This document shows, piece after piece, positions 12,742 through 35,084 of a stretch of DNA of 64,000 nt. The stretch is from a virus, in IMG/VR virus record IMGVR_UViG_3300032069_000007, positions 16,288-80,287 of that record; one strand, given 5' to 3'. Position numbers and translations under genes: made by a program. A model generated the notes under the pieces. It was given only the letters and a program-made list of their open reading frames with translations. It was not told the DNA's origin and did no database searches. Numbering within the stretch: position 1 is the first letter of the stretch; each line of letters opens with the position of its first letter.

Positions 12742-13977
12742 ATGGAAGCACAAACAACGTTCGCCGAGCGCTGGGCCGTAGCGAAGGGCATCAAGTCCGA
12801 CCTTGCCGACGCGCTTGAAGATGAGGAAGAGGCCGTCGCGGATTACGACGAGCAACTCGAGGAGGCCGGCGAAGGCAAACTCAGGGAAGACCTGACGGAG
12901 ATCCGCGATGACGAGAAGGACCATGCGCGGCGACTCCGGCGCCATCTCAAGCGGCACGTCGCGGGCAAGAGTTTTGCCGACCGCTGGGCCCTCGAAAAGT
13001 CCAACCCGAGCCTCATCCGCCGCACGCCAGGGCATCCTGCCCACCAGGCGTTGCTGGACGTTGGGGCGCGCTACCACGGCACGATTCGCGACCCGAGAAA
13101 CGGGGCAGAGCATCACGTTTACTCAGTGCCGCAGAAGATGAACTTCCAAGGCACGGCTATTTCGGCCAACACTGCCGCGGGGTGGCACCGCCTATCAGGG
13201 AACTGGGCACCCATGGCTACGCCCTCCCGCCACACGCACCGCTGGTCGTCATTTGAAAACCCGGAGAGAACAGCCCGACACGTGCTCCACGGGTTCACAA
13301 ACCCAGAGCATGCCGAGGCCGCACTCAAGGCGACTCATCGGTTGACGCAAAAGTGGCAGAAACCTGCGGCTCTGGGATCGCCCAAGAAGTCCTTCGCCGA
13401 GCGGTGGGAAGTGGAAAAATCCCACGTCAAAGGCCATTACCGCCAACGCGGCTCCAAGCGCTCTTGGGTCAAGCCGCACGAGCGGAAGGACACTCCGGGT
13501 GCCCCGCGGCAGGAACCAGCGGCGGGTATCCAAACCCCGTACCGCACGCGACAGGAAGTGGAGCGCGAGACGTCGGAACTCTTCCGGGATGCTGACGTGA
13601 TCTCGACCTACACCCGCAAGGACGCCCTGGCAGACGGCACGCTCGTTGACCTGACAAAGTGGGCCTCATCCGGGCCGGAAGGTATGATGGGCGGCTTCAA
13701 GGTTCCGGTCGCGGTAACGTCCGCTGTCTGGGGCGAGATCAACGACATCCCGAAGTCGAAGCAGGGAATTCAGGACGTTCGGGGTCGCGCGCACGATGTG
13801 CTCACGATGGCAGTGCTTGCGGCAAGGAGTGCGAAGCCGGGTAACAGCGAAGTCCTGTTCCGCGTCATCATGGACATCTCCGCAACCCGGGGCCGATACC
13901 AGACCTACAAGTTGAACATTGGGCCAGGGGATGTGGGCGAGCCCGTTGTGACCATTATGAGGCCCGAAGAGGACTAG
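12742..13977 (+). CDS. Modular protein: ferritin-like helices + unknown + basic hairpin + DUF6573-like
   Basis: EEEAVADY...DEKDH; C-terminal YTRKDALADG..GFKVPVAVT..GPGDVGEPVVTIMRPEED; modules separated by FA(E/D)RWx(V/L)xK(S/G) repeats. Confidence 0.75.
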   Translation: MEAQTTFAERWAVAKGIKSDLADALEDEEEAVADYDEQLEEAGEGKLREDLTEIRDDEKDHARRLRRHLKRHVAGKSFADRWALEKSNPSLIRRTPGHPAHQALLDVGARYHGTIRDPRNGAEHHVYSVPQKMNFQGTAISANTAAGWHRLSGNWAPMATPSRHTHRWSSFENPERTARHVLHGFTNPEHAEAALKATHRLTQKWQKPAALGSPKKSFAERWEVEKSHVKGHYRQRGSKRSWVKPHERKDTPGAPRQEPAAGIQTPYRTRQEVERETSELFRDADVISTYTRKDALADGTLVDLTKWASSGPEGMMGGFKVPVAVTSAVWGEINDIPKSKQGIQDVRGRAHDVLTMAVLAARSAKPGNSEVLFRVIMDISATRGRYQTYKLNIGPGDVGEPVVTIMRPEED

Positions 13978-13987
13978 GAGGGCCAGG

Positions 13988-14146
13988 ATGGCTGAAGCCG
14001 TTCCCGAACCCGCATTGTGGGCAGCCAAGCCGCAGCCTGACCGCAACGTCGGCGACGGGTGGCCTGCTTGGGACATTGAGTGCGATCGCTGGCGCGACCC
14101 AGAACGACCAAGGGAGCAAAGATGGCGCCGACCGAAACCGCAGTAA
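13988..14146 (+). CDS. Small hypothetical protein (52 aa)
   Basis: AGGAGGG SD and ATG; fills the gap between genes; below the ORF-track cut-off. Confidence 0.35.
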   Translation: MAEAVPEPALWAAKPQPDRNVGDGWPAWDIECDRWRDPERPREQRWRRPKPQ

Positions 14147-17100
14147 AGCCCGTTCTGGATTTGCACGACCTCGAGAAGTCGAGGGTGAGGGCGTACACCC
14201 GGCGTGGATCGAGTGGTCAGCCAGTTCAGGTTGCCGAGTATCAGACGAAGGTCCAGAAGAGACCGCAAGCCCCCGGCGGGCCGCGTCTCACGGTCGCGCG
14301 TCAGCCAGCAACTCGCTCTGCCAGAAGCCGGTTAGCCTCTGCCTCGTCGATGCGCTTCCCATCGCGCAGAAGGTCGGCGTACAGGACGTCAGCACGCACC
14401 CAGTCCGCATCCCAGGGTGAGCGGCGCTCCACGGCATCCAAGGAGGTCTTGCCTTCGTCCTCCGACTCGACCCAGGAACGGCAGACGGTGTCGCCGTCCA
14501 AAACCCAGTATGTTAGTTCGCGGTCTGGCACTGTCCGGTCCACCCCCAAGGTCATTATACCACGAACAGCAGCGGCAACGACATCGGCGGCGCTCAGCCG
14601 CAGAATATCCAACCTCGAGAGCACCGGCAACGGTCACGAGGTCGCAAAGTATGCGGCGGCGATCGCGGCTCACCTCAAGGACGCACCGACGCCCTTCAAG
14701 GGAACGTGGGAGGACAAGCGACAGCCGACAGGCGACATCCCGGACCTACTGCAGCTTGCAGAGAGTGCCAAGCCGAACTTTGAAGCGAGTCTGGGGAGGA
14801 TCGCTGATCGGCACGGCGGGGCTAGTGCCTGCCGCATCAAGCAGGAACAAACGCTCAGGACGCGGATGCGCGACAAGGGCCGGCCCGCTGATACCGTGAC
14901 GGACATTCTCGGCGGCCGGATCATCACCGATGACCCTGCGCACATCGCTCCCGTTCTTCGAGAGTTGCGAGAACTCTATCCCGTAGTAGAGGATGAAGAT
15001 AAGTTCGCCCACCCTACGTCCTTTGGCTACTGCGCCCGGCACGTGCTGGTCAAACTGCCGAGCGGCCTTACGGCCGAAGTCCAGGTCAACCTCCGAGAAT
15101 CCATCGAAATCCAGGATGTCGTCAGCCACCCGATCTACGAGGAGCTTCGCGCACCGAAGCGCAGGACCGTCGAAGAGCGCCAGGCGTTGCTCGCGAAGGT
15201 GGACGAGATACGGGGCCGGTACGCCGAGGTTCTGCGCAAGGCGACTGCGGCTCTCGGATTGGTGGTCAAGTCGCTCGTTGTTCGGTCCGTTGCGGCCTTC
15301 CAGGAGGCGAAGCACCCGCGAGTGCCACAAGGGCAGCGGGATGCCGAGGGTCGAACCGGCGGCGAGTTCGCGCCCAACCGCACCGGCAGATATACGCGGA
15401 AGGTCGTGACGCCGCGCGGCAACGTCGTCTACGTGTACCCGAAGCGCGTGGCCCAGGCCCGGCAGTCGGCCAAGTTTCGAGGGATGCAGAAGTTGGCGGG
15501 AAAACTGCCGACAATCCGCACTGCCCTCTCGCAGGATATCCGGCGCAGGGACCTCGAGGAGCGAAGAGTCTGCGCCGTTGCAGTCGCACTGATAGACAGC
15601 CTGCACTTCCGGGTCGGCACAGAGGGGGCCGAGACCGCCGGCGAGCCGACGTACGGCGTGACGACGCTTTTGGGTGACCACGTGCGCAACACGGACGCCA
15701 AGATCATCTTCCAGTTCCGCGGCAAGAAAGGGGTCCAATGGTCGCGGGAACTCCACAAGCCCGATGACCCGGATCTGGCGAGCGCCGTGGAGCAGATCTT
15801 GAGCGGCGTCGGACCGGACGAGCGCGTTTTCCGCTTTCGGGGCGCGCGCGGTCTCGAGCCTCTGACCGGGTATCGTGTTGAGAAGTACCTCAAGAGGTGG
15901 AACACGACGCCGAAGGCGTTCAGGACATTGCACGGGTCATACCTGGCGCACAGTGCGCTGTCACAATTTGTCAGCCAGCACCGCGGTCAGCGGCAGTCCA
16001 GGAAGCAGGTGAAAGCAGATATTCGCGAGGTCTGTAGCTATGTTTCCGCGGAACTGGGGAACACGCCCGCGATCGCGAAGCGGAGCTACATAATGCCGGA
16101 GATCATCCGAAGCTACATTGAGTCCGAGGGCACAAGGGTCGAGCCAGACCTCAAAATGGGGAAATCATTGGACGTCTGCCAGCTCTGGATTTTGGCAAAC
16201 GAGCACGGTCAGGTCCGCGGGTTCCTCCACAATGCGACGGAGCACGTCGAGCGGTTCGCGGACCAGCTCGCAAAGGCCCGAGTGGAGAAGTCCGACCAGG
16301 AGGTCGAGAAGTCACAGTTGGGGCTGCCGTACCATCTCGAAGGCGGGGTTGGCTCGGCGCACAGGGGGGCCAAGAAGCGGCTCGGCAGGCGCGCGCTGAT
16401 AGTCCGGACAGGCCGACAGCCAAAAGCGGCAGGCGATCCCGACCTGTCGCGGAAGATCAAGCGCATTGTCGGAGTCGTTGATACCCGCCAATACGAGGAG
16501 ATCGGCGACACGTGGAAGCCCATCGCCGGTAGTGGGACAGTGAACCAATGTGCGCGCTGCGGGAAGGACCATGAGGTTCATGCGACGGTCGAGCTTCAGG
16601 ACGGCACGCACGCCGTAGTCGGCACGAGCTGCATGAAGGCCGACAACATGGAGATGGCGCTGCGCTTCGAGAAGCTCGACCGGGCGGCCAGGCGGCTGCG
16701 GCAGCTCGAAGCCGAAAAAGCAAAGTACGATAGGGAAGTGCAGCAGTACCAGGGGGCGCTCGCGGAGGTCAGGGCGATGCCGAAGCCTCCGATCGAGGTC
16801 GTTATTGCTGAGGACCACCCTTGGTCACGGTACGAGTACAGAATGGGCGAAGCTAGGTGCTGGGGCGAGAAGCCCGATGATCCAGAGCGGCGCATGTGCG
16901 TAACATCGAACTGGGAGACGAAAGAGCTCGTGAAGCGCGGGATCCCGCACGGGCGGCGTCCTTACCCACTCCACGAATTTGACAGGGAAATCGCCAAGGT
17001 GAAAAGGCGGATCGAGGCGGTCAAGGCAGAGTCGGAAGTCGAGAAGTCCTCTCTCTCGCGCGCGCGCAAGATAGTCACGGAGATGTACGAAAATCTTTCA

Positions 17101-20100
17101 AGCGATGCCACGCTCGAGTTCGCTCAAGACGGCGAATGGTATATCGTTCCCCGCATTGAGAAGGCCGGCGCTGCGACAGCAGAACCAAAACAGAAGGAGT
17201 GGTGGTCAGGAGCTGCGACCGGAGACGAGCGCTGGATCACCGTCCATCCGGACCCGGGCAGTCCTGAGAACTACCGCCACGTCAAGGTTCGGCTCAGGCC
17301 CTCCGGCAAGTGGCACATCATCGCCGGCGGAACCGGCCTCGAGCACGAAGAGATCGTTCCGAAGCACAAACTGACGCCGGAAGAACGGGAGCGCTACGAG
17401 GAGCGCCGGAAGAAGATGGAGGGGATCCGCAAGGAGCGCGAAAAGGGCCTTGAGCGGCTGACCGAGGTGCGGGAACAGCACACGAGCGTAAAAGCCGAGC
17501 AGATGGGGATAGCACCCACACTGACCGAGGACACGCGGCGGGCCGTCGAGCACAGGGCAGAGACACGGGCGGAGGATGCCGGCCTGACCGGAGACGACCG
17601 GGACCGGTTTGTAGCCCGCGCTGTCCACGAAGCTGAGACGCGGCACCACGCTTACGTGCGCCGGGCTTGGGATCGCCTTTACTATCAGGCTCACAAGATC
17701 GCCCAGGCAGAGGACCCGGAGCTCGCCGTTGGCGAAATAGCGAAACGGCACGACGAAGAGGAGGATCGGGCCGCTGATGAAGCCGCGGGCAAGGTGGAAT
17801 CGAGCCTGCGAGAGATGATCGGCAAGCCGGCCTCCTCGGGTGAACCGGAGGCTGAGGAGCCGAAGGCTGAAGTTGCCATCGCCGAGACCGAAAGAGCTCA
17901 GCCGATTTACCGGCCGCCGAAGGTCAAGCCGATCTCCTCCGTGGAGCAGGCTATGAAGATCATTAGCCTGGAGAAGCAATCCCGCAAGATGATCGCAGAA
18001 GGCCGGAAGGAGCTTGCGAAGCTGCCCGAGGAGGAACTGTCCGGGACAGGAACGCTCGAGCAGTTTCAGATTACCGCAGAACTTGCGGACGAGCAGGGCG
18101 CGATGGCTGCTGCTATCCGCTCCGTCGACGATGCCAGGCGCGCCAGCCTCAACTCTACGCTGGTCCGCTTGGCCGACGAAACGTTCCGATCCGAGGAGGG
18201 AGCGTACGAGCGATACGGCAAGAAGCGGTACGACATTGGCCGGGCACAGGTCACAGGCGCCCTGGATGCACTGACCGGGATCTCTACCCGGTTTATAGGT
18301 TCTTCTTTCATAGACAGGCCGCTGGTGGAGGCGCTGGGAGTCGAGGCTGCGGCAATGCTCGCAACCCGCGAGATTCTGCAAAAGCGTGGGAGGCTCGACT
18401 TGGACGACGTCATAGCCGATATGGAGAGCTACCACGCGGGCGAAGCGATGAGGATCGCGCAAGAGGCCGTAGCGCAGCACGACGAGCTCGAGGGGATGCG
18501 GAAGACGGTTGACGAATCCTCTGCGCGCGCGCTCGTTGAGGGCGGGGAGACAGGAAGGCTTTTCTCCACTGCCCAGGCCCTCGCTTTTGACGGCGAACTG
18601 AACGTAGACGCCGTAAGACACTTGGGCACGGCGATAGGATCCTTGCATGCGTCCGCGACGGTCATGGCGATGCTCCGGGCGGCGAAGTCCGGGAAAGGCA
18701 AGCTCGACGAACTCAAAGTGAACATTACAGACGAGGGCGATGTCGCTCTCATTGACAGGATGTTGCACCTCCGCGGTCACTACAAGGTCACGCACGACCC
18801 TGAGACCGGCACCACCTCGGTCCTGCTTAATCCAAAGTCGCTGGCCCGCTACATGAAGTTTGCAGCCAAGGAGCGCGAAGAGTCCGACTACGCGAAGGCC
18901 CTGCAGAACGGCACAGCGAAAATTGATGTCTCGGCAGCGCCGGAGGGCTGGAAGGACCGGTACACAAGCCCCATAGACCGCCAGGAGAGAGACTTCCATT
19001 GGAAGCCGATCCAGCGGCGCGCACAGGAGTTTTTCCTCAGCCAATGCACCGGCGACGACGGCGGCGCCCTGATCGACCTGGAAGTAGGAGGCGGAAAGAC
19101 GATAATGGCGCTCGGCGCGATGGGATTCCTCCGCGACCAGGGGAAAGTGCAAAAGATGCTTTACATTGCACCGCAGGAGTCCCTGGTGGGCCAGGTCCTC
19201 GGCGAGGTCGGGGGATTCACCGACTGGAAGTCGAATCAGGTGCGCGGAGGCGCAAGGGCAAGTCTTGACGACATCAGGGGGCGCTATTCCGACCCTTCGT
19301 TCGTTCAGGTGGTTTCTGCCCCTACGGTGGGCGCAGACGTCCGCCGACTGGAGCAGCTTGGGGTAAACCCATCGGACTTCTTCCGCGAGCTCGGGTACGA
19401 TGGAATGGTGGCCGACGAGGCCCACAAGTTGGTGTCTGGCGTCGGGGGGGGCAAGAACGCCCGCGCGCTCAGGCGTATGCGTATGCGCTACAACCTGGCG
19501 ATGACCGGCACGCTCGTGACCAACGCGATCTCTCAGCCCTTCGACCTTGTCCGGTGGGTCGCGGGAGCAAAGGTGGACAGCCGTGCGAAGATTCTGCGCA
19601 AGTATGGGGAGGTCGGGCTGGGAACCACGGCATGGCAGGACGCTGTCAACGCCGACGTCCGCCAACAGGTGGATCGGCACACATTCCACGGGGCCGGGAC
19701 CATCAAAGCCAAGCTCTATCGTAACGAACTGAAGGTGGGCCTCTCGGAGACGCAGCGGCAGGACCTTGCCCAGGCGGTTAAGGCGGACAAGGTGCGCCGT
19801 GATGAGTATGCCAAGTCCAGGCCAGCCACTCCCGAAAAGGCCGAGCAGGCGCGCAGAAAACTCGACTTCGACCGCGACCGCGAGGTCTTCGAGATTCTCC
19901 ACAACCGGGACTGGAAGCAGAACGACAGGTTGCGCGAGATCGCAAAGACGATCAAGCGGACGGTGGCCGACAACCCTTCACAGAAGTTCATCCTAGTGGC
20001 CGATACTGATTATGGACTCTCTGCCATCCGGTCGGTCACGCGGATGCTGGCTGATCTGGGCTACGGCGACAGGACAGCACTTTTCGCGAGTCAGGACGCC

Positions 20101-20424
20101 TCCGGTCAGGCGATCTCACAGAAGAAGATGATGCGCGAACAGGCCCGCTTCGCGGTCGATTCTAGCTGCCAGTTCGCGGTACTTGCCGCTCCGCAGGCGA
20201 TCGGGCGCAATATGGAGGCCGCCGGAGTCTTGGTACACGTCACGCTCCCGCCGGACGCCGGGTCGGAGAAGCAGCGGACAGGGCGCGCCTGGCGCGAGGG
20301 CCGGCAGGGAGATGTGAACGAGACGCTTTTCTATACCGACCAACATCCGTTTGATATGAGCCGCCTGCTGCAACTGAGGCGGACCGCAGGTCCGCTCGCC
20401 GCCATATCAGGAGGCCAACCGTGA
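14122..20424 (+). CDS. Polyvalent protein: RelA/SpoT-like nucleotidyltransferase + topoisomerase IB + Zn finger + SNF2 helicase
   Basis: RIK..TDILGGRI..GYCARH..AEVQV..SHPIYE (RelA/SpoT); FRVG, GKKG, KAFRT, LGNT, RSY (TopIB catalytic set); DLEVGGGKT, VADEAH, MTGT, QRTGRAWR (SF2/SNF2); ATG 14122 with AGGGAG SD. Confidence 0.85.
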   Translation: MAPTETAVKPVLDLHDLEKSRVRAYTRRGSSGQPVQVAEYQTKVQKRPQAPGGPRLTVARQPATRSARSRLASASSMRFPSRRRSAYRTSARTQSASQGERRSTASKEVLPSSSDSTQERQTVSPSKTQYVSSRSGTVRSTPKVIIPRTAAATTSAALSRRISNLESTGNGHEVAKYAAAIAAHLKDAPTPFKGTWEDKRQPTGDIPDLLQLAESAKPNFEASLGRIADRHGGASACRIKQEQTLRTRMRDKGRPADTVTDILGGRIITDDPAHIAPVLRELRELYPVVEDEDKFAHPTSFGYCARHVLVKLPSGLTAEVQVNLRESIEIQDVVSHPIYEELRAPKRRTVEERQALLAKVDEIRGRYAEVLRKATAALGLVVKSLVVRSVAAFQEAKHPRVPQGQRDAEGRTGGEFAPNRTGRYTRKVVTPRGNVVYVYPKRVAQARQSAKFRGMQKLAGKLPTIRTALSQDIRRRDLEERRVCAVAVALIDSLHFRVGTEGAETAGEPTYGVTTLLGDHVRNTDAKIIFQFRGKKGVQWSRELHKPDDPDLASAVEQILSGVGPDERVFRFRGARGLEPLTGYRVEKYLKRWNTTPKAFRTLHGSYLAHSALSQFVSQHRGQRQSRKQVKADIREVCSYVSAELGNTPAIAKRSYIMPEIIRSYIESEGTRVEPDLKMGKSLDVCQLWILANEHGQVRGFLHNATEHVERFADQLAKARVEKSDQEVEKSQLGLPYHLEGGVGSAHRGAKKRLGRRALIVRTGRQPKAAGDPDLSRKIKRIVGVVDTRQYEEIGDTWKPIAGSGTVNQCARCGKDHEVHATVELQDGTHAVVGTSCMKADNMEMALRFEKLDRAARRLRQLEAEKAKYDREVQQYQGALAEVRAMPKPPIEVVIAEDHPWSRYEYRMGEARCWGEKPDDPERRMCVTSNWETKELVKRGIPHGRRPYPLHEFDREIAKVKRRIEAVKAESEVEKSSLSRARKIVTEMYENLSSDATLEFAQDGEWYIVPRIEKAGAATAEPKQKEWWSGAATGDERWITVHPDPGSPENYRHVKVRLRPSGKWHIIAGGTGLEHEEIVPKHKLTPEERERYEERRKKMEGIRKEREKGLERLTEVREQHTSVKAEQMGIAPTLTEDTRRAVEHRAETRAEDAGLTGDDRDRFVARAVHEAETRHHAYVRRAWDRLYYQAHKIAQAEDPELAVGEIAKRHDEEEDRAADEAAGKVESSLREMIGKPASSGEPEAEEPKAEVAIAETERAQPIYRPPKVKPISSVEQAMKIISLEKQSRKMIAEGRKELAKLPEEELSGTGTLEQFQITAELADEQGAMAAAIRSVDDARRASLNSTLVRLADETFRSEEGAYERYGKKRYDIGRAQVTGALDALTGISTRFIGSSFIDRPLVEALGVEAAAMLATREILQKRGRLDLDDVIADMESYHAGEAMRIAQEAVAQHDELEGMRKTVDESSARALVEGGETGRLFSTAQALAFDGELNVDAVRHLGTAIGSLHASATVMAMLRAAKSGKGKLDELKVNITDEGDVALIDRMLHLRGHYKVTHDPETGTTSVLLNPKSLARYMKFAAKEREESDYAKALQNGTAKIDVSAAPEGWKDRYTSPIDRQERDFHWKPIQRRAQEFFLSQCTGDDGGALIDLEVGGGKTIMALGAMGFLRDQGKVQKMLYIAPQESLVGQVLGEVGGFTDWKSNQVRGGARASLDDIRGRYSDPSFVQVVSAPTVGADVRRLEQLGVNPSDFFRELGYDGMVADEAHKLVSGVGGGKNARALRRMRMRYNLAMTGTLVTNAISQPFDLVRWVAGAKVDSRAKILRKYGEVGLGTTAWQDAVNADVRQQVDRHTFHGAGTIKAKLYRNELKVGLSETQRQDLAQAVKADKVRRDEYAKSRPATPEKAEQARRKLDFDRDREVFEILHNRDWKQNDRLREIAKTIKRTVADNPSQKFILVADTDYGLSAIRSVTRMLADLGYGDRTALFASQDASGQAISQKKMMREQARFAVDSSCQFAVLAAPQAIGRNMEAAGVLVHVTLPPDAGSEKQRTGRAWREGRQGDVNETLFYTDQHPFDMSRLLQLRRTAGPLAAISGGQP
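14301..14531 (-). CDS. Nested antisense small acidic protein (76 aa), candidate antitoxin/immunity protein
   Basis: GTG 14531, GGGGGTG SD (14547-14541), TGg-TATAAT (14562-14554); the overlapped sense frame reads as Ser/Arg-rich low-complexity sequence. Confidence 0.6.
   Translation of the reverse strand: MPDRELTYWVLDGDTVCRSWVESEDEGKTSLDAVERRSPWDADWVRADVLYADLLRDGKRIDEAEANRLLAERVAG
14554..14562 (-). promoter_or_regulatory. Extended -10 promoter for the nested antisense gene
   Basis: TGGTATAAT on the minus strand; no clear -35. Confidence 0.55.
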
Positions 20425-27260: not shown

Positions 27261-27541
27261 CTGTACAATATGACACTCCACCGGACATGATGCCGGAGAT
27301 CAACCGCCTTCTGGTGCTCGCCGTCGGGTCGGTGAGGAGGGCGCATTTCGCGCAGGTGTTCCGGGCCGAGGTCGGGCCGCTGTTCGAGGGCCTGTCGAGC
27401 CTCCGGTACGACCAGATCGAGGAAGCGTTCCTGGACCAGATGGAGGCGGCATTCGACCTAGCTGGCAGTGTGCGGGATGCCTTTCAACTTAGAGATCGAT
27501 TGACAGCGGAGAGTGACCCACAAGATGGCAACCGTGGTTAA
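27257..27541 (+). CDS. Hypothetical protein
   Basis: Start overlaps the upstream stop; helical composition. Confidence 0.55.
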   Translation: MTVQYDTPPDMMPEINRLLVLAVGSVRRAHFAQVFRAEVGPLFEGLSSLRYDQIEEAFLDQMEAAFDLAGSVRDAFQLRDRLTAESDPQDGNRG

Positions 27542-30500
27542 GGTCTTAGGCAGGCAGGGCAACCGGCTCAACATCGCGCGCCGGGAGTGCTCCTGCGAGG
27601 TCAAGTTGCCGTTTGGCCTGCGCTTCACCGACGGCGGCAAGATGCACCGGGTCCACGTCTGCCCGCAGTGCGAGCGCCTCCACGGGTACGAGGACATCCG
27701 TAAGGGAACCCTGCTGCGCAGTCAAGTCGTCTTCGCCCCCGGGTTGCCGCTCTTATCGAAGGCACTCGAGCTCAAGGCCGGCCAGCGCTGGGTAACGCTG
27801 CATCCGGATGCCGAGAACCCAGAAAACTACGTCCACGTCCTGATCCAAGAGCACCCCGATGGCACAGCAAGCGTCATTCGGGGAGCTGAGGGCAAGCTCA
27901 ACTACCTGCGGCTGACAAAACTCAAATCGCCGGAGGACTGGCAGGAATCCGGAAAGCGCCTTGCCGAGGAGCGCGAGAGGCGGCGGAAAGAGCGTGAGGC
28001 CGCGATGACCGAAGAGGAGCGCCAGACCACGCACGACGTAGAAGCTGGCATACTGGCCCGCAAGGAGCTGGAGGACGCCAAGTACGTATCGCAGGTGATG
28101 GAGGCGCACGGGATAGGCGAGTCCGACTGGAAGCTCGAAGAAAAGACCTTGGTAGCCCTGCCGGGGAAGTCACGCGAGATGGCCGAGAAGCAGCACCTCC
28201 GCAAGATGGTCACGGTGGCGAACAAGCTCGTGGACCGCACGCGCAAGGATCTGCTGGACGCTCACGACCGATTGGCCGAAGCCGAGCTCGGCGATATGCC
28301 GCTCGGGGACGTAGGTATCGAGCGGCCACTCGAGGGCAAAGGAAGCGGGTATATCGCCGCAGTCGAGAACGCGGCAGAGGCGGCTGGTCTAAGCGTCAGG
28401 CAGAAGATCGCGGAGAAGGAGGACATAAGCTGGAGAGGGTTCCTTGACCGAAGCGACGGCGATCCTCTCAAGGCTGCCGAGAAGCTCGCAGCGGTCCAGC
28501 GCCTGCACGCAGCGCTCCGCGAGGTTCGTGAACCGATCAAGGAGCTCAGAACCGCCGGCCTATTGGATAGGCCGCTGAAACCGGAACTTCCGCCAACCGA
28601 GAAGATCGCTGACATCCTCGTGGCGCAGAAGCAGCACACCGACTACGAGCGGCAGTACCGACAGGTGAAGGGTGAGATAGAGGAACACGGGGTTCCCAAG
28701 GCCGCTCTTGAGGTCGTGACGGAACTCAGGCCGGAGGAGGTCGAGGAGATCATCAGGGCCGCTGCCGCAAAGCCCTTAGACGAGGAAGCCGCCAAGGACA
28801 AGGTCGCCGAGGAACTGGCCGAGGATGCGATGCAGCGTGCGGCCGAGAGGCTGCTTGCGACCGCCGACAAGGAGGAGGCCCTTCAGCCACTCCGCAAATA
28901 CGTGACGATGGGGCATTACGACAGTTTGAACCGCTCCTGCCTCGCGGCAACGCGCACCCCCCTGCCCCTCGGCCGTCTTCAGGCCGACATCCTGGGACCA
29001 GAGGCCAGTGCCCAGGTGCTCGCCGCCCATCTCAGAGAAACGCTCTCGGACACGGATTACAGGGCAGCACTCCACGGCGTTGCCAACTACCATCGCAACT
29101 ATCAGCGGCAGGCAAGCGAACAGGCCCTCCAGTCGTACGCGTCGACAAAGCAGCAGGCCGACGAACTCTCCGAGCGCCCGATATCCGACATCGGGTCTCT
29201 TGTTGAGGCACAGGTTGCGAATGCCGACCGGATTGACCTCGTTGACGAGGCGCGGGAGACTCTCGGCGTGGCGCTCGGACGGCTGGAAGCTACGGCTGCG
29301 CTTGTCCAAGCGCTTGAGCTTCAACACGCACGCAAGGGAGTGCCGGAAGAGCTGCGGGTTCCGCTCGGTGCTATCTCAAATCAGCAGGCCATTGCGCAAG
29401 CGCGCGTGCTGGGACTCAGCCACCCTGTCATGGAGGAGATGGAGCCGGGGGTGGAACCCGATTACCGAATCGACTCCGACGGCGTCAACAAGTTCCTGAC
29501 TATCTTGCCGAACGGGGCAGCCAAGCTCGTGACGAAGCCCGATCGGGAGCTCGCAGAGAAGCACGCACTCGCAACCGAGATCAAATCAGGTAGGCGGGAT
29601 CAGAGGCACTGGCTCCCCGCAGGAATTGTCTCGAGGCCGCAGAGCACATTCGAGGATCCCGAGAAGCGCGCGGTGCAGTTCTCGGAACCGCTCGAACTCA
29701 GGCCCAAAATGCGGTATGCGGAGGTCAACCGCGGACTCAAGCACTATATCGCGCGGCGTCTAGCGGACGGCCAGGACCCTGAGAGCCTGCGTTCCGACCT
29801 GCTTTCGGCAGAGTTCACCGCGGACCTGCCGGACGATCTTCTGGGAGACGGCGGCGGATCCTACTACAAGGCCCTAAGCGACCTCGGCTGGTTCACCTAC
29901 AACCAGGTAGAAAACAAGTCCCCGGAGGGGCTGGAGGCCATAGCCGAACACGCAGTTGAGGAGTACGAACGCGAACACGGGGCGTCTGAGGAGGTCGCCG
30001 CCCTCAACTCGCAGTCCATCCCACTGAAAGACAGCCCGGTGTGCTACGAGGCTCTCTACAGGGCCGTTGCGGCTCACCCCGAAGCCAGGGTAGCGTTCAA
30101 GGCTCTCTCCGAGCTGACGCCGGAGGAGCGCGGGCTGATCCAGCGCTTCTTCTACCGGGTCATGACCGAGGAGAAGTCGCCCCAGGAAGAGGCTGAGGAG
30201 AAGAGGCTTACCGCAAGACCGACCCAGGCCCCGGCTAGGCAGGAGGCGCTGTGGGCCGAGCAAGAGGTGCCCGCAGAGACGACGGAGGCCCGGAAACCCG
30301 CCAAGCCAGGACGCGAGACCCCGTGGACCCGCTACGTCAAGGCGCAGGGATCTGTCCAACATGCCTATGAGAGTGTCCAGGACGTCATGAGAGGCGCCGT
30401 CTCGGCGCAGTTCGCCAAGCACATGGGAGGCATACTTGGCCGCGAGCTGAAGACCGGCAACAAGCGCATCGCAAACTGGGATGACCACCTTCTCGGGCTC

Positions 30501-33500
30501 GTTTCTCCAGAACGACAACAGCAGCTCCTGGAGGCGCGGCAGGCAGAAATGGCGCGCAAGCACGCGAGGGTCGCGACTCGCGCCCGGGGCAAGTTCGCAA
30601 CGGAGGAGCGGCTCGGCATCAGGCGTGAACGCGCGGAGGCCCTCGATCGGGCCATCCGTGGAGCTGCGCTCTCGCTGTTCAAGGAGAAGCCGCTGCCCGC
30701 GATCGAGCGGGTTACGATCGGCGCCCGGGCGGAGAAACAGCTCCAGTCCATCTTCCCCTACGTTGCCCAGAACTTTGAGGTTGACCGGCCGGTAGACATC
30801 CCTCACGATGTAAATATGAGCGAAGGTGAGATGGTAAAGCAGCAGCGCGCGGTGAAGCTGATCGAGGGCCTGAAGCGGCTTTCGCTCAACCTGGGCGTCG
30901 GCACCGGCAAGACCCTGGTCGCGTTGGGCAGCTTCTCAGACCTGCAAGCACGCGGCGCAGTCAACCGCGCCATCTTCGCTGTGCCAGCCAGCCTTACGGC
31001 GCAGTTCGGGTGCGTTCGGGGCGACACGGAACTCTGTGACCCTATCCGCGGACTCACCATGACATTTGAGGAGTGGCTGCTTTCGGGCCTGAGGCCCTTT
31101 GTCTGGACCCGGGCCGCGGGTGGACAAGTAACCATCGAACTGGCGTCTCGCCCATTCCTGAAGGGCCTTGATCGGATGTATCGCGTGGAGACGGACGATG
31201 GAGCGTCAATTGTTGTGACCGCAAAGCATCGCTTCCTTACGCCGAAGGGTTGGAGGCCGTTGTGCGAGTTGCCCGTCGGCTCGCTTGTTTCTTGCGCCGT
31301 CGCTCTGAAGCGTGCAACAAGCGATGCTCACGGTGGCTCCCGAGCAACTGGAGATTATCGATCCGGTTGTCATCCTTTTGGCCATTACGGTGATGAACGA
31401 GCTCATCCGGCTCCAGATAACGGCCAACGTGCTTTTCCATTATCAGGCGGTGCTCGAGATAGTAACCCAGTGAATTTGCCTGAGGGTGGTCCGGCACAAA
31501 CAACGCGATGTAGCCAGCAGAACGCCGAATCCGACCTCCCTTCCAGTTGTTTGCCTTTTCGCCCTTGTGACGGTTGGCATTGCCGAGTCTTGGAACGTCG
31601 AGCTTCTTCAGGCGAAGCCGAACCGCATCCTCGCTTGCGCCGTTATCCAAAATGCGGGCTATCTCCGAACACGACCGCCCCTGCTCAGCCAACTCTCGCA
31701 ACCGCTCGTCGCTCCACTCGTACCCAGGTGGCCTGCGCCCGTTCAGGCGGAGTTTCCGCATTCGACGAAGGACGGTCGCTTGTGTTGTCCCAAAGTAACG
31801 AGCCAGCCAAGATAGCGATCTCCCTTCTTGAACGAAGCGGCGGAGGTCGTTCTCATCTATGGAATGAGGTCGACGACCAGTGCGCAGAGCCTCGGAAAGC
31901 CCAAGAGCCCTCACCCGACGAGCCAAGTAGCTCTGACTCCTCCCGGTCTGCCGTGACATCCAAATGCAGGTTCGATCCTCGGCAACCCAATCCCGCAGTT
32001 GCTGATCCGGGACGGCGGCGTATTCTGGGAGACTTGGCGGAGTCAGTCCCAATTCAAGCAAGCGCCGCCGAAGCGTGTGCCGTGCAAGGCCGAATTGGCG
32101 CTCCATCCAAGCCAGCGACCTTCCCTGGCTGTGGTAGCGCCTCAATGCCGTTTCATCAACCTGTTTCGTCGGTTGGCTCATGCACCCAGTATAGCACAAT
32201 TCGCAACATCTCGGAAGTGGGGCTTGCCCTTGTCTTCGACATCGCAGTTGCACGGACACACAACTACTGGGCTGGCGGGTTCTGGAATCACAATTCGGAA
32301 GCCTTGAGGTTCTACGAACCTGGCAGGTTCAAATGGTTCGCCGACCCGACGGCCAGCGCTGAGGACCGCCGGGCCGCCTATACTGATCCCGATCGGCAGA
32401 TATGCGTTGTCACCCATCAGGCCCTCAGAGACGACCTCGTCTGGGCGGTGGGCCAGGATCGGTTCGGGGGCAATGTACGAAAAGCGGAAGACTGGATGCG
32501 TGCGGCTCCCGAGGACGAACGCAGGCACGAGGTACGTGCGGCAGCGGAGAAACAAGGGTGGAAGTGGGACATGTGTTTGCCGTACGAGGCTCCGGTGGCG
32601 ATGGCGGACGGAACAACTCGCAGGATCGGAGATCTCGTGGAATCCCGATCAAGCGATCCCGTGCTGTCACTCAACCTTCAGAGCGGTAGGTTGGAGGCCA
32701 AGTCAGTGTCCGATTGGTTGCGCTTGGAGTGCCCGCACCCCCAACTCTACCGAATCCTCGCGGGCGAAGCAAGCGTGATATGCACAGGTGATCATAAGAT
32801 ATGGACACTCGGTAGGGGGTATGTCCGCGCTTGCGAGGTGCGAGTAGGTGACCGACTTTTGGCTTTACAACCGACCGACTCTCTGCTAGAATTGGAACAC
32901 GATACCTTGAACCGGGGTGACAGAAATGGCAGTGAGGGATATGTTGGTCGGAACGCTTCTGGGCGATGCCTCGATGGGCCAGAGCGCTGCCGGGACGCCG
33001 CGAGTAACGATCAAGCACTGTCCCGCGCAAGAGGATTATCTATTCCACAAGTACGATCGACTGAGATCAATATGCCCATCTGCGCCGAAGTTCGTCAGGA
33101 ACGGGGGATGGGGCGGCGACCTCTGGGTCTTTCAGACGAGCTGCCTGGATTGGTTGCGGCAGTACCGGGAGATGATGTGGCGCGACGGGAGGCGTCGGAT
33201 TGCCGACGCCGTGAAGGATCACTTGACCCCGGAGGCACTGGGTTACTGGTATATGGACGACGGTTCGCTGTCGAACGGGTGTGCCACACTCAGCACACAC
33301 AGGTATTTGCGGGAAGATCAACGGAAGCTGCGATCTTGGATCCGCCAACTGTACGAGATCGAGGTTCTGGAACGCTACGACCGAAGGCACGACCGGTTTT
33401 ATATGGCGATGCGCAGAGAGGCGACGCGCCGGTTTGTGGCACTTCTGAGTCCCCACGTGCCGGAGTCCATGAGATACAAGCTGAATGTGCCGAATGCGGA

Positions 33501-35084
33501 GTTGCTGCCGTACATAGCGCCAACCCCGGAGGCCCTGCCGGGACGACTGTGCGTGATCTGCGGTCAGCGGTATGCCTTTCAGCAGGTCTGCGACTCTCCG
33601 GAATGCAAGCAGACCAAGAGGGACTGCGACAACCGGCGTTGGTACGACGCGCACGCTGCCGAGATCTCGGCGAGAACTCACGAGGAGCATCTGCGGAATC
33701 TCGGAGAGGGAACGTGCGAGGTGTGCAAGAGTCAATTCCTCCGCACCAGTCGCCTCCATGTACGCACGTGCTCGGCGGCATGTCGAGCGGAGTGGAAACG
33801 CCGTCGGGCCCTGGCATGGTACTACCAGAACTGCGATGCCATGAAGCACCAGTAACCTCAGTCGAGTTCACAGATGCGCCTGCGTTTGTCTATGACATAA
33901 CGGTGGAGGAGAACCACAACTTCTTCGGCTACGGCCTCCTCGTCTCCAACTGTCTTGTTGATGAGGGTCAGGATATTCTCCGCCGGCTTCATAAAGCCGA
34001 CAGCCTGATGCAGCACGCCATCGACGCTCTGTCATATCACACTCCCTATTACATCTATTCCACGGCCGACCCCGTCAAGAACGACTGGTCGGAAGTCCAC
34101 GACGTTTTGGCAAAGGTAGCACCCGACCGTTATCCCGCCGCCAGCCGGGAGGAGTTCCACCGCCGTTACGGAATCGACTGCCTCCAGACTCAGCAGGCGC
34201 TCAGACAGGAAATGCACCCATTCGCCTATGCCGAGCGTATTCCTCTGGGCATCGTGGCAAGCAGGAGGCAGGAGCCAGTGCAGCTCTCTGCCCCAGAGCA
34301 ATCCGAGTACGACGGTGTCCTCCAGGCATATCGAACCGCGCAGACGGCACGGCGCGCCGGAAAGGTAGACGATGCCGTCCCCGCGTTGCGGCAGATGAAC
34401 CCCCGTGCCTTCGAGGGCAAAAACGAAGCCGAACAGCGGACAGAGGCGGGGAGGATGTTGCAGTTCCTCTCGGCCGCCAGAGACTCCGCGCTGGACCGAA
34501 TCGTCAACGCAGGTTCGGTGCGCGGGGCAGGCGTGCGCATACCGGCCAAACTTGAAACATTGCACGCGTTCGTGCAGTCACGAATAGCAGAGAAGGGCGC
34601 TGGCCTCGTCTTCGCGCACTCGATAGAGGCGCAGAACCAGATCGCGGGATACCTCAAGAGCAAGGGGATCAAGGTGGGCACCCTCTCAGGGTCTGACCCC
34701 GGGGCGAAACGCGAGCGCACGCGCCAGGACTTTCAGGCCGGCAAGTTTGACGTCCTCTGCCTCAGCGATGCTGGATCGACGGGGCTCAACTTGCAGAGGG
34801 CCGCATTTTGCTGTAACTTCGACTCGCCGTATACGGCGAAGACCTACGAGCAGCGGATCGGCCGCATGGAGCGGCTGGGCCAGACCAACCCTGATATGAA
34901 GGTTCTGGATCTGGTTACGACCACTCCCTACGAGCGCGGCCGGAGGCGACTCCTGGAGCGCAAGGGGAAGCTGCGGGAGGCGCTGACCGCGCCTTACGAA
35001 ATGCTTGATGACACCGATTTGGGGAGAGAAATCGCTGAGGCGCGAAGCAGTGAGATCGAGAAGGCAGTACTTAAAGCCGCTTAG
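27513..35084 (+). CDS. Giant SNF2-family helicase protein containing two inteins
   Basis: LGVGTGKT (Walker A); AVPASL..QFG|SE (motif Ia, split by intein 1); M|CLVDEG (Walker B, intein 2); [22 protein letters not shown]; start may be ATG 27525. Confidence 0.9.
31237..32181 (-). CDS. HNH homing endonuclease with 4 HTH repeats, antisense inside intein 1
   Basis: [35 protein letters not shown]; NWKGGR; four LRxxxxxGRS-like HTH units; ATG 32181. Confidence 0.9.
32188..32216 (-). promoter_or_regulatory. Extended -10 promoter for the nested HNH gene (leaderless)
   Basis: TGc-TATACT (32196-32188), 6 nt, then ATG; weak -35 TTCCGA at 17 nt. Confidence 0.7.
32864..32892 (+). promoter_or_regulatory. 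sigma70-type promoter inside intein 2
   Basis: TTTACA (32864-32869), 17 nt, TGc-TAGAAT (32884-32892); SD GGGGTGA at 32914-32920. Confidence 0.75.
32926..33855 (+). CDS. LAGLIDADG homing endonuclease + Zn ribbons, in the +1 frame inside intein 2
   Basis: [11 protein letters not shown] and [11 protein letters not shown] (two-motif LAGLIDADG); CVICG, CDSPEC, CEVCK, CSAAC. Confidence 0.9.
   Translation: MAVRDMLVGTLLGDASMGQSAAGTPRVTIKHCPAQEDYLFHKYDRLRSICPSAPKFVRNGGWGGDLWVFQTSCLDWLRQYREMMWRDGRRRIADAVKDHLTPEALGYWYMDDGSLSNGCATLSTHRYLREDQRKLRSWIRQLYEIEVLERYDRRHDRFYMAMRREATRRFVALLSPHVPESMRYKLNVPNAELLPYIAPTPEALPGRLCVICGQRYAFQQVCDSPECKQTKRDCDNRRWYDAHAAEISARTHEEHLRNLGEGTCEVCKSQFLRTSRLHVRTCSAACRAEWKRRRALAWYYQNCDAMKHQ

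Follow-up and report, generated by a model that had tools for sequence, protein, structure and literature searches.

An intein with a predicted HNH homing endonuclease gene on its opposite strand in a helicase gene of an uncultured sediment phage

Several kinds of intein are known in which the endonuclease is read outside the host frame. Antisense open reading frames (ORFs) for LAGLIDADG endonucleases were described in the Synechocystis DnaX and Chloroflexus SpoVR-like inteins (Gorbalenya 1998; Gogarten et al. 2002), and actinophage inteins were found to hold in-frame HNH, antisense LAGLIDADG, antisense VSR-like and out-of-frame EndoVII-like (frame 3) endonucleases, with invasion of inteins by free-standing endonuclease genes proposed in the same work (Gosselin, Arsenault & Gogarten, bioRxiv 10.1101/2025.01.02.630785). 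A cyanobacterial dnaX intein has a LAGLIDADG endonuclease in the +2 frame and frame-dependent selection (Phillips, DeSimone & Gogarten, bioRxiv 10.64898/2026.09.14.751524). Split inteins whose halves enclose a free-standing endonuclease gene have been reported together with a model of a homing endonuclease gene invading an intein (Dassa et al. 2009, PMC2677866), and the DNA methylase of ShiLan-type phages has an insertion with a hidden out-of-frame HNH endonuclease and no detectable splicing domain, which is thought to stay as a loop (Arsenault et al. 2025, PMC11855218). Here we describe an intein in a SNF2-type helicase gene that carries a predicted HNH endonuclease gene on its opposite strand. 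It lies in a 64-kb stretch (the window, to which all positions refer) of the 80,287-bp IMG/VR virus record IMGVR_UViG_3300032069_000007, from an uncultured sediment phage.

The host gene (27513..35084, + strand) encodes a helicase precursor of 2523 amino acids (aa) with two inteins; its 2523 codons are uninterrupted, with no stop, and removal of both inteins leaves a helicase of 1636 aa. Pfam detected Helicase_C in the precursor, and SNF2-rel_dom, ResIII and Helicase_C in an intein-less relative of 1630 aa (P0006). Intein 1 (31011..32294, +) covers precursor aa 1167-1594 and is a 428-aa class 1 intein with Cys1 at its start and His-Asn before Ser+1. The HNH gene (31237..32181, -) is placed between residues 98 and 390 of its Hint splicing domain, on the other strand. 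Intein 2 (32574..33950, +; aa 1688-2146, 459 aa) contains a LAGLIDADG_2 endonuclease ORF in the +1 frame. The locus is probably a working two-strand mobile element in which a class-1 intein is combined with a separate homing endonuclease gene on the opposite strand.

Intein 1 shares with the antisense-endonuclease inteins (Gorbalenya 1998; Gosselin 2025) a Hint domain in the host frame, an opposite-strand endonuclease between the splicing blocks and an unfolded in-frame centre, as well as a sporadic distribution suggesting ongoing homing and the same proposed origin by invasion. Its nuclease, composed of helix-turn-helix (HTH) repeats and HNH_3, falls outside the four architectures of Gosselin 2025, in which the HNH cases are in frame, and its host gene differs from those of the antisense-endonuclease inteins in being a SNF2-type helicase of an uncultured sediment phage with a second non-canonical intein. 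Overlapping frames, a disordered in-frame part, a folded alternative-frame endonuclease and frame-dependent selection are also found in the out-of-frame same-strand inteins (EndoVII-like; dnaX +2 LAGLIDADG). Intein 2 matches these, whereas the nuclease of intein 1 is on the opposite strand, so that it needs its own promoter and is out of reach for ribosomes on the host mRNA. The fractured genes (Dassa 2009) likewise have a separately expressed endonuclease gene flanked by N-terminal and C-terminal splicing parts; here, unlike in those, the host ORF is one unbroken reading frame, so that the gene is not fractured, the intein is not split, and splicing would occur in cis and not in trans. The ShiLan methylase insertion resembles intein 1 in hiding an HNH endonuclease in another frame and in being stop-free in the host frame, but the insert in the window is flanked by a complete Hint domain. 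Finally, I-HmuI (1u3e) and the free-standing phage HNH_3 genes also combine an HNH_3 catalytic core with added DNA-binding modules; the similarity to I-HmuI is weak (E 0.004), and the window protein differs from it in four tandem N-terminal HTH modules and in its antisense position within an intein.

Literature searches found no published case of an antisense HNH inside an intein. New at this locus are the combination of nuclease family and strand, the occurrence at two sites of a SNF2 helicase, the presence of two different overlap geometries within a single gene, and a natural empty allele. An earlier note, made from the letters of this DNA, had proposed a general class of element from two cases with different nuclease families and geometry in one gene. 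The two cases are real (antisense HNH; +1 LAGLIDADG_2) and the generalization is correct, but the class itself is not new (Gorbalenya 1998; Gosselin et al. 2025; Phillips et al. 2026).

Intein 1 begins with CVRGDTEL, ends with WNHN|SEAL, and is positioned after helicase motif Ia and before SEAL. Its structure was modeled with AlphaFold2 using an alignment of nine related inteins as input. The Hint N-terminal part (31011..31304, +; intein aa 1-98) contains blocks A and B (T70-x-x-H73), is predicted as beta strands with predicted local distance difference test (pLDDT) values of 84-97, and is conserved in the nine related inteins. The Hint C-terminal part (32178..32294, +; intein aa 390-428; pLDDT 87-97) contains blocks F and G with the HN end and shows the conserved pattern ...D..V...NY.A.G.W.HN. 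Cys1, H73 of block B (T70-A-K-H73) and N428 are invariant in the alignment. The folded part superimposed on the NpuDnaB mini-intein 4o1r with Z 21.3 and a root-mean-square deviation of 2.0 A over 138 residues (VIA-align), and its top 27 structural matches were inteins or Hint-type domains throughout. Between the two parts lies a filler (31305..32177, +; intein aa 99-389), the stop-free other-strand reading of the HNH gene, which had pLDDT values of about 35 and no secondary structure; Pfam found no domain in this in-frame centre. Because the centre is domainless and disordered, intein 1 does not have the canonical design, in which the endonuclease domain is read in the frame of the intein. The ORF, Pfam and the model thus bear out the earlier description of a 428-aa intein (C...HN|S) without an in-frame domain at its centre. 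Judged from its motifs and predicted structure, intein 1 is a class-1 intein with a Hint fold and would be expected to splice. A search of the intein 1 protein against 50,697 deposited phage records gave a single weak and partial match, to another intein, and the DNA of the locus had no match in the deposited phage records.

The HNH gene starts with ATG at 32181, comprises 314 codons plus a stop codon at 31237-31239, and its phase relative to the intein frame is 1. Pfam assigned the 314-aa protein to HNH_3 (PF13392; 3.8e-10, 39.7 bits vs a cut-off of 24.8) and to the HTH families HTH_20, HTH_28 and HTH_7. In the AlphaFold2 model (mean pLDDT 78.7), a beta-beta-alpha HNH domain comes after four three-helix modules. 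The four HTH modules, presumably for DNA recognition, occupy 31603..32154 (-; aa 10-193; helices H10-43, H59-99, H110-143 and H158-193). The HNH_3 nuclease core (31312..31545, -; aa 213-290; pLDDT 86-95) has the arrangement WKGG ... HH ... N ... N ... H, with NWKGG at residues 212-216, strands E261-264 and E277-280, and helix H283-309. Residues H264, N272, N276 and H286 are invariant among nine sequences that are only 25-56% identical. A basic C-terminal tail (31237..31304, -) overlies the coding region of the Hint N-terminal part and differs among relatives. Four HTH repeats, NWKGG and a complete HNH motif had been read from this strand beforehand, and both Pfam and the model agree with that reading.

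A profile search with the HNH homologs matched I-HmuI only weakly, as given above, together with the tandem-HTH proteins 8vd6 and 2lvs, and Foldseek with the whole HNH model against PDB gave nothing at E <= 0.001, with I-HmuI appearing only at E 0.5 (probability 0.90). The relatives in deposited phage genomes are annotated as HNH endonucleases, each covering at most about half of the 314-aa protein. One called protein of 312 aa (P0018) is 56% identical to the window HNH protein over its full length. The idea that it is the exact antisense product of P0004 or P0005 was rejected (compatibility 46-53% vs a background of 32-38%); judged by its sequence, P0018 is a related copy from another contig. 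An inverted repeat of 15 nucleotides (nt; 31197-31211 / 32093-32107; 93% complementary, arms 881 nt apart) has one arm in the Hint N-terminal part and the other in the HNH gene and is probably due to chance. An invertible cassette was rejected, one arm of the repeat being inside the HNH gene and no equivalent existing in two related loci (L065 and L003).

An extended -10 promoter-like motif, TGCTATACT (TGcTATACT; 32188..32196, -), precedes the HNH gene and overlies the Hint codons Q-Y-S. The minus strand ahead of the start reads ...TGCTATACTGGGTGC ATG, that is, TGCTATACT-GGGTGC-ATG, and 6 nt separate the end of the -10 hexamer from the ATG, as had been noticed before. The pattern TGNTATAMT has only two matches on both strands of the window (128 kb of strand searched). 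The second (TGGTATAAT; 14554-14562, -) is inside the gene of a 2114-aa protein, and the minus-strand ORFs near it have no Pfam domain. An extended -10 was present upstream of the HNH start in four of the seven loci examined, the other upstream motifs being TGcTATAAT (L065), TGgTATACT with TTGTCA 18 nt before it (L003) and TGgTATGAT (L070). The mini-inteins do not have it, not even those that share the Tyr codon. That the HNH gene has a promoter of its own, in the form of this motif, is well supported. Since the usual distance from the -10 hexamer is 7 nt, transcription would start on the A of the ATG. Ribosome sites of the GGAGG type are common to many other genes of the phage. No RNA runs containing this DNA were found.

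To assess dual coding, the HNH protein was held constant while synonymous codons were permuted or resampled from phage codon usage, in 20000 runs each. The helicase frame stayed open across the HNH gene in 1/20000 permutations and 7/20000 resamplings, with about seven stops expected, and at seven loci including the window the host frame was open in 0-8/5000 shuffles at each. Since the shuffles nearly always bring in stops, the open helicase frame is not due to chance and is kept by selection. Codon position 2 of the helicase faces codon position 3 of the HNH gene, and this relative phase means that stops in the helicase frame come from NTY or NCT codons followed by a codon that begins with A. 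Dipeptides that force such a stop occurred three times in 1824 aa of embedded HNH proteins vs 41 times in 1481 aa of free-standing relatives, a depletion indicating that the nuclease protein itself has become adapted to overlapping the helicase frame.

Two comparisons showed in which frame amino-acid selection acts. Locus L065, from a different phage, has its intein at the same insertion site in exteins only 42.7% identical to those of the window. For the same DNA, the HNH frame gave 43.7% identity and the filler frame 24.5%, and the differences per HNH codon position were 0.47, 0.37 and 0.66, the pattern expected when the central DNA is read as an HNH gene. The intein frame was free of stops in all ten members of the family described below. 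A stop-free intein frame and a conserved antisense frame in homologs, on which the earlier note had made its claim depend, are thus both present. In a close pair of related loci (L075 and L078), the inteins differ at 22 positions in 942 nt. Of the 13 changes in the Hint-N zone, 11 leave the Hint residues as they are but change the HNH tail; of the nine in the centre, seven are synonymous for HNH and eight change the filler. The central part is thus selected in the HNH frame and the two ends in the Hint frame. The filler is free of amino-acid selection, its sole demand being the absence of stop codons.

Intein alignments were used to scan IMG/VR and JGI metagenomes. Ten distinct members were found, namely the window and nine others; in every one the host frame is free of stops and the opposite strand has an HNH ORF. 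They are located in the helicase at site 1 (window, L065/L066), in a homologous helicase at site 2 (L003), in terminase large subunit or terminase-like genes (L051, L052, L067, L070, L075 type and L078 type) and in a further host gene (L081). The DNA-binding modules vary with the site: helicase site 1 has four HTH, L003 combines two HTH with NUMOD3 repeats, and the copies in terminases have one or two HTH. The antisense phase is identical in all ten. The codon-aligned antisense phase could be opened by synonymous changes alone, yet none of the ten uses it, and the use of one phase throughout although the other is attainable points to common descent, for which the tree of HNH cores is too weak a basis. 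Two mini-inteins of 135-139 aa (L050 and L069) have nothing between the Hint parts; from their alignment without the insert, its limits are at about intein residues 103 and 393, and the earlier note had pointed to such relatives as the means of defining these boundaries. The remaining HNH relatives in IMG/VR stand alone as small genes, and no long ORF lies opposite them. The idea that free-standing endonuclease genes invaded mini-inteins fits both observations, although the direction, gain or loss, is not proven by them.

These data also allow a broader, tentative reading, to which we give slightly less than an even chance. Hint with antisense HTH-HNH would be an old and stable two-strand lineage, derived from a single ancestral invasion that fixed the phase, hopping among terminases, two SNF2 helicase sites and other genes, with retargeting by gain or loss of HTH and NUMOD modules and with the promoter written over Hint codons. 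If so, encoding the nuclease in antisense is a lasting substitute for fusing it in frame, and elements of this kind have widely been taken, wrongly, for decaying inteins or mini-inteins. When genome contigs were scanned with the intein-alignment profile, only canonical inteins with in-frame endonucleases were found (Polyangiaceae metagenome-assembled genomes), with no antisense HNH. Three of these genomes (L082, L083 and L084) have an intein in a conserved gene with an in-frame endonuclease-like domain (…LVGDGH… motif), and the C-terminal block of this intein resembles that of the antisense-HNH family.

Empty alleles were found at the insertion site. P0006 shares 97.2% of 1630 compared residues with the spliced helicase, is without both inteins, and carries Ala at the positions of the window Ser+1 and Cys+1 nucleophiles. 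Intein 1 is missing exactly at QFG|(A/S)EAL in P0006, P0007 and P0009, and most of the 47 homologous IMG/VR helicase loci are without it. Contigs of three public sediment runs were compared with window positions 30500-34500. In run X2, a sediment run from a different study, a 66-kb contig showed no difference over 30500-30982 (483 nt) and one over 32305-32533 (229 nt), and jumped from 30982 to 32305 via 38 replaced nt, 14 of which differ from the window flanks. The replaced flanks correspond to an upstream patch (30983..31010) and a downstream patch (32295..32304), the latter holding the +1 codon, which is Ser in the window and Ala in the empty allele. The empty-allele DNA at the site is ...CAGTTCGGG|GCAGAG... 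(protein ...TGQFG|AEAL...). The same contig also skips intein 2, with 232 nt replaced there. Run X2 further contained short low-depth contigs identical to intein-internal sequence, from which filled and empty alleles appear to co-occur in it. From these comparisons the element looks recently mobile.

A position-by-position comparison of the pair L075 (2501-3442) and L078 (356-1297) gave, besides the 22/942 differences in the intein, 0/1500 downstream and 95/355 upstream, the last a number that an indel could inflate. This pattern suggests a recombination boundary at the intein.

The mechanism that we infer, from splicing and promoter use to the activity and target of the nuclease, is as follows. 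The helicase mRNA would be translated straight through intein 1, whose first 98 and last 39 residues would fold as a Hint domain and join the helicase exteins, and splicing would discard the disordered filler of 290 residues. The nuclease would be made from its own minus-strand transcript, probably starting at the extended -10 TGcTATACT inside the coding region of the Hint C-terminal part. During co-infection it would cut or nick an intein-less helicase allele near ...TGQFG|AEAL..., and repair would copy the intein, the nuclease gene and a short flank into the empty allele. The single ancestral invasion behind the family is likewise a step that we infer.

A number of observations count against this mechanism and are taken here with the alternatives. 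Intein_splicing scored intein 1 alone at 29.3 bits, below the cut-off of 35.8, so that its class membership rests on motifs and predicted fold, and the proposed splicing would have to bridge a linker of 290 aa that is predicted to be disordered. A scan for two-hexamer promoters found no minus-strand site and no -35 before the HNH gene, where the promoter is a motif match alone. The leaderless promoter of the earlier note holds as a motif that recurs in four of seven loci, but leaderlessness itself comes from the geometry, and this is not conserved: in L065 the homologous ATG is preceded at 5 nt by GGAGG, while leaders of about 27 nt with a Shine-Dalgarno-like sequence are present in L003 and L070. 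The HNH transcript of the window phage may be leaderless. The tight cluster of differences exactly at the insertion site, in DNA that otherwise matches, is a trace that homing would be expected to leave, through flank co-conversion, target-site immunity or both, and it bears only indirectly on cleavage of the empty allele by the nuclease.

One alternative is that the HNH gene is independent, of the free-standing type, and has settled in the one part of an essential gene from which the insert is removed at the protein level, with its own target and its own spread, without serving the intein. It draws on the free-standing state of the other HNH relatives in IMG/VR, on the promoter-like signal of the gene, on the existence of mini-intein relatives without it, and on a tree of HNH cores from embedded and free-standing copies, which had no starred branches and several long ones and did not resolve the embedded copies as one clade. 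In near-identical genomes, however, the two parts were seen only both present or both absent, homologous Hint and HNH occur together in the same phase at no fewer than four insertion sites, which suggests joint movement, and no mini-intein was found at the site of the window. We regard an independent HNH gene as unlikely.

A second alternative, which we hold to be very unlikely, is that the intein splices while the antisense HNH gene is dead and decaying, its open frames reflecting a recent origin. Expression and activity of the HNH protein are here deduced from sequence, the HNH_3 score of L051 is weak (24.7 bits), and in the ortholog L065 the segment before the HH motif is shortened, so not every copy need be active. 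Against decay stand the catalytic residues, invariant despite the low overall identity, the substitutions, which show purifying selection on the HNH frame, and the fact that near-identical genomes are polymorphic for its presence, with a patch of diverged sequence precisely at the insertion point. That an antisense gene is only mimicked by a sequencing error or by a segment that was inverted or wrongly assembled, conceivable for a record that is a metagenome assembly, is effectively refuted, because in a public sediment run (X1, which may be the source sample) one contig covers 30500-34500 with one base different, an ortholog is present in two separate assemblies (L065 and L066), ten distinct relatives have the same design, an inversion would not keep the host frame stop-free, and no conserved inverted repeats were found around the insert.

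The best living evidence for the view that the splicing domain came first and the endonuclease later comes from inteins whose endonuclease is encoded separately in an overlapping gene; such inteins also show that long dual-coding stretches can persist in phages. This locus maps which frame is selected in which part of such an element, with an empty allele in an almost identical genome. Nuclease genes of this kind are missed by gene callers and annotators, and the compact mini-intein and nuclease parts could be put to bench tests.

Intein 2 starts with Cys1 and ends with Ser-Asn before Cys+1 (CLPYEAPV...VSN|CLVDEGQ), just before helicase motif II, which is DEGQ in the window and DEAH in the empty allele. 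Pfam Intein_splicing on the whole precursor (P0001) gave 72.5 bits in two stretches, the best being aa 1695-2146, inside intein 2. Its LAGLIDADG_2 ORF (32917..33855, +; Pfam 2.4e-28) has a promoter-like site at 32864-32892 (+; TTTACA-17-TGcTAGAAT), and in the two kinds of shuffle the host frame across the ORF was open in 0/20000 and 1/20000 runs.

The genes of the window are on the + strand almost throughout, and its further long minus-strand ORFs (13666-14268, 14746-15933, 17206-19902 and 29874-30806) contained no Pfam domains. The 2114-aa protein mentioned above (14080-20424, +) has a RelA_SpoT-like region (1.5e-08) together with the catalytic core of a eukaryotic-type topoisomerase IB (9.3e-26) and a DEAD/ResIII helicase, a fusion that is unusual among phage proteins.

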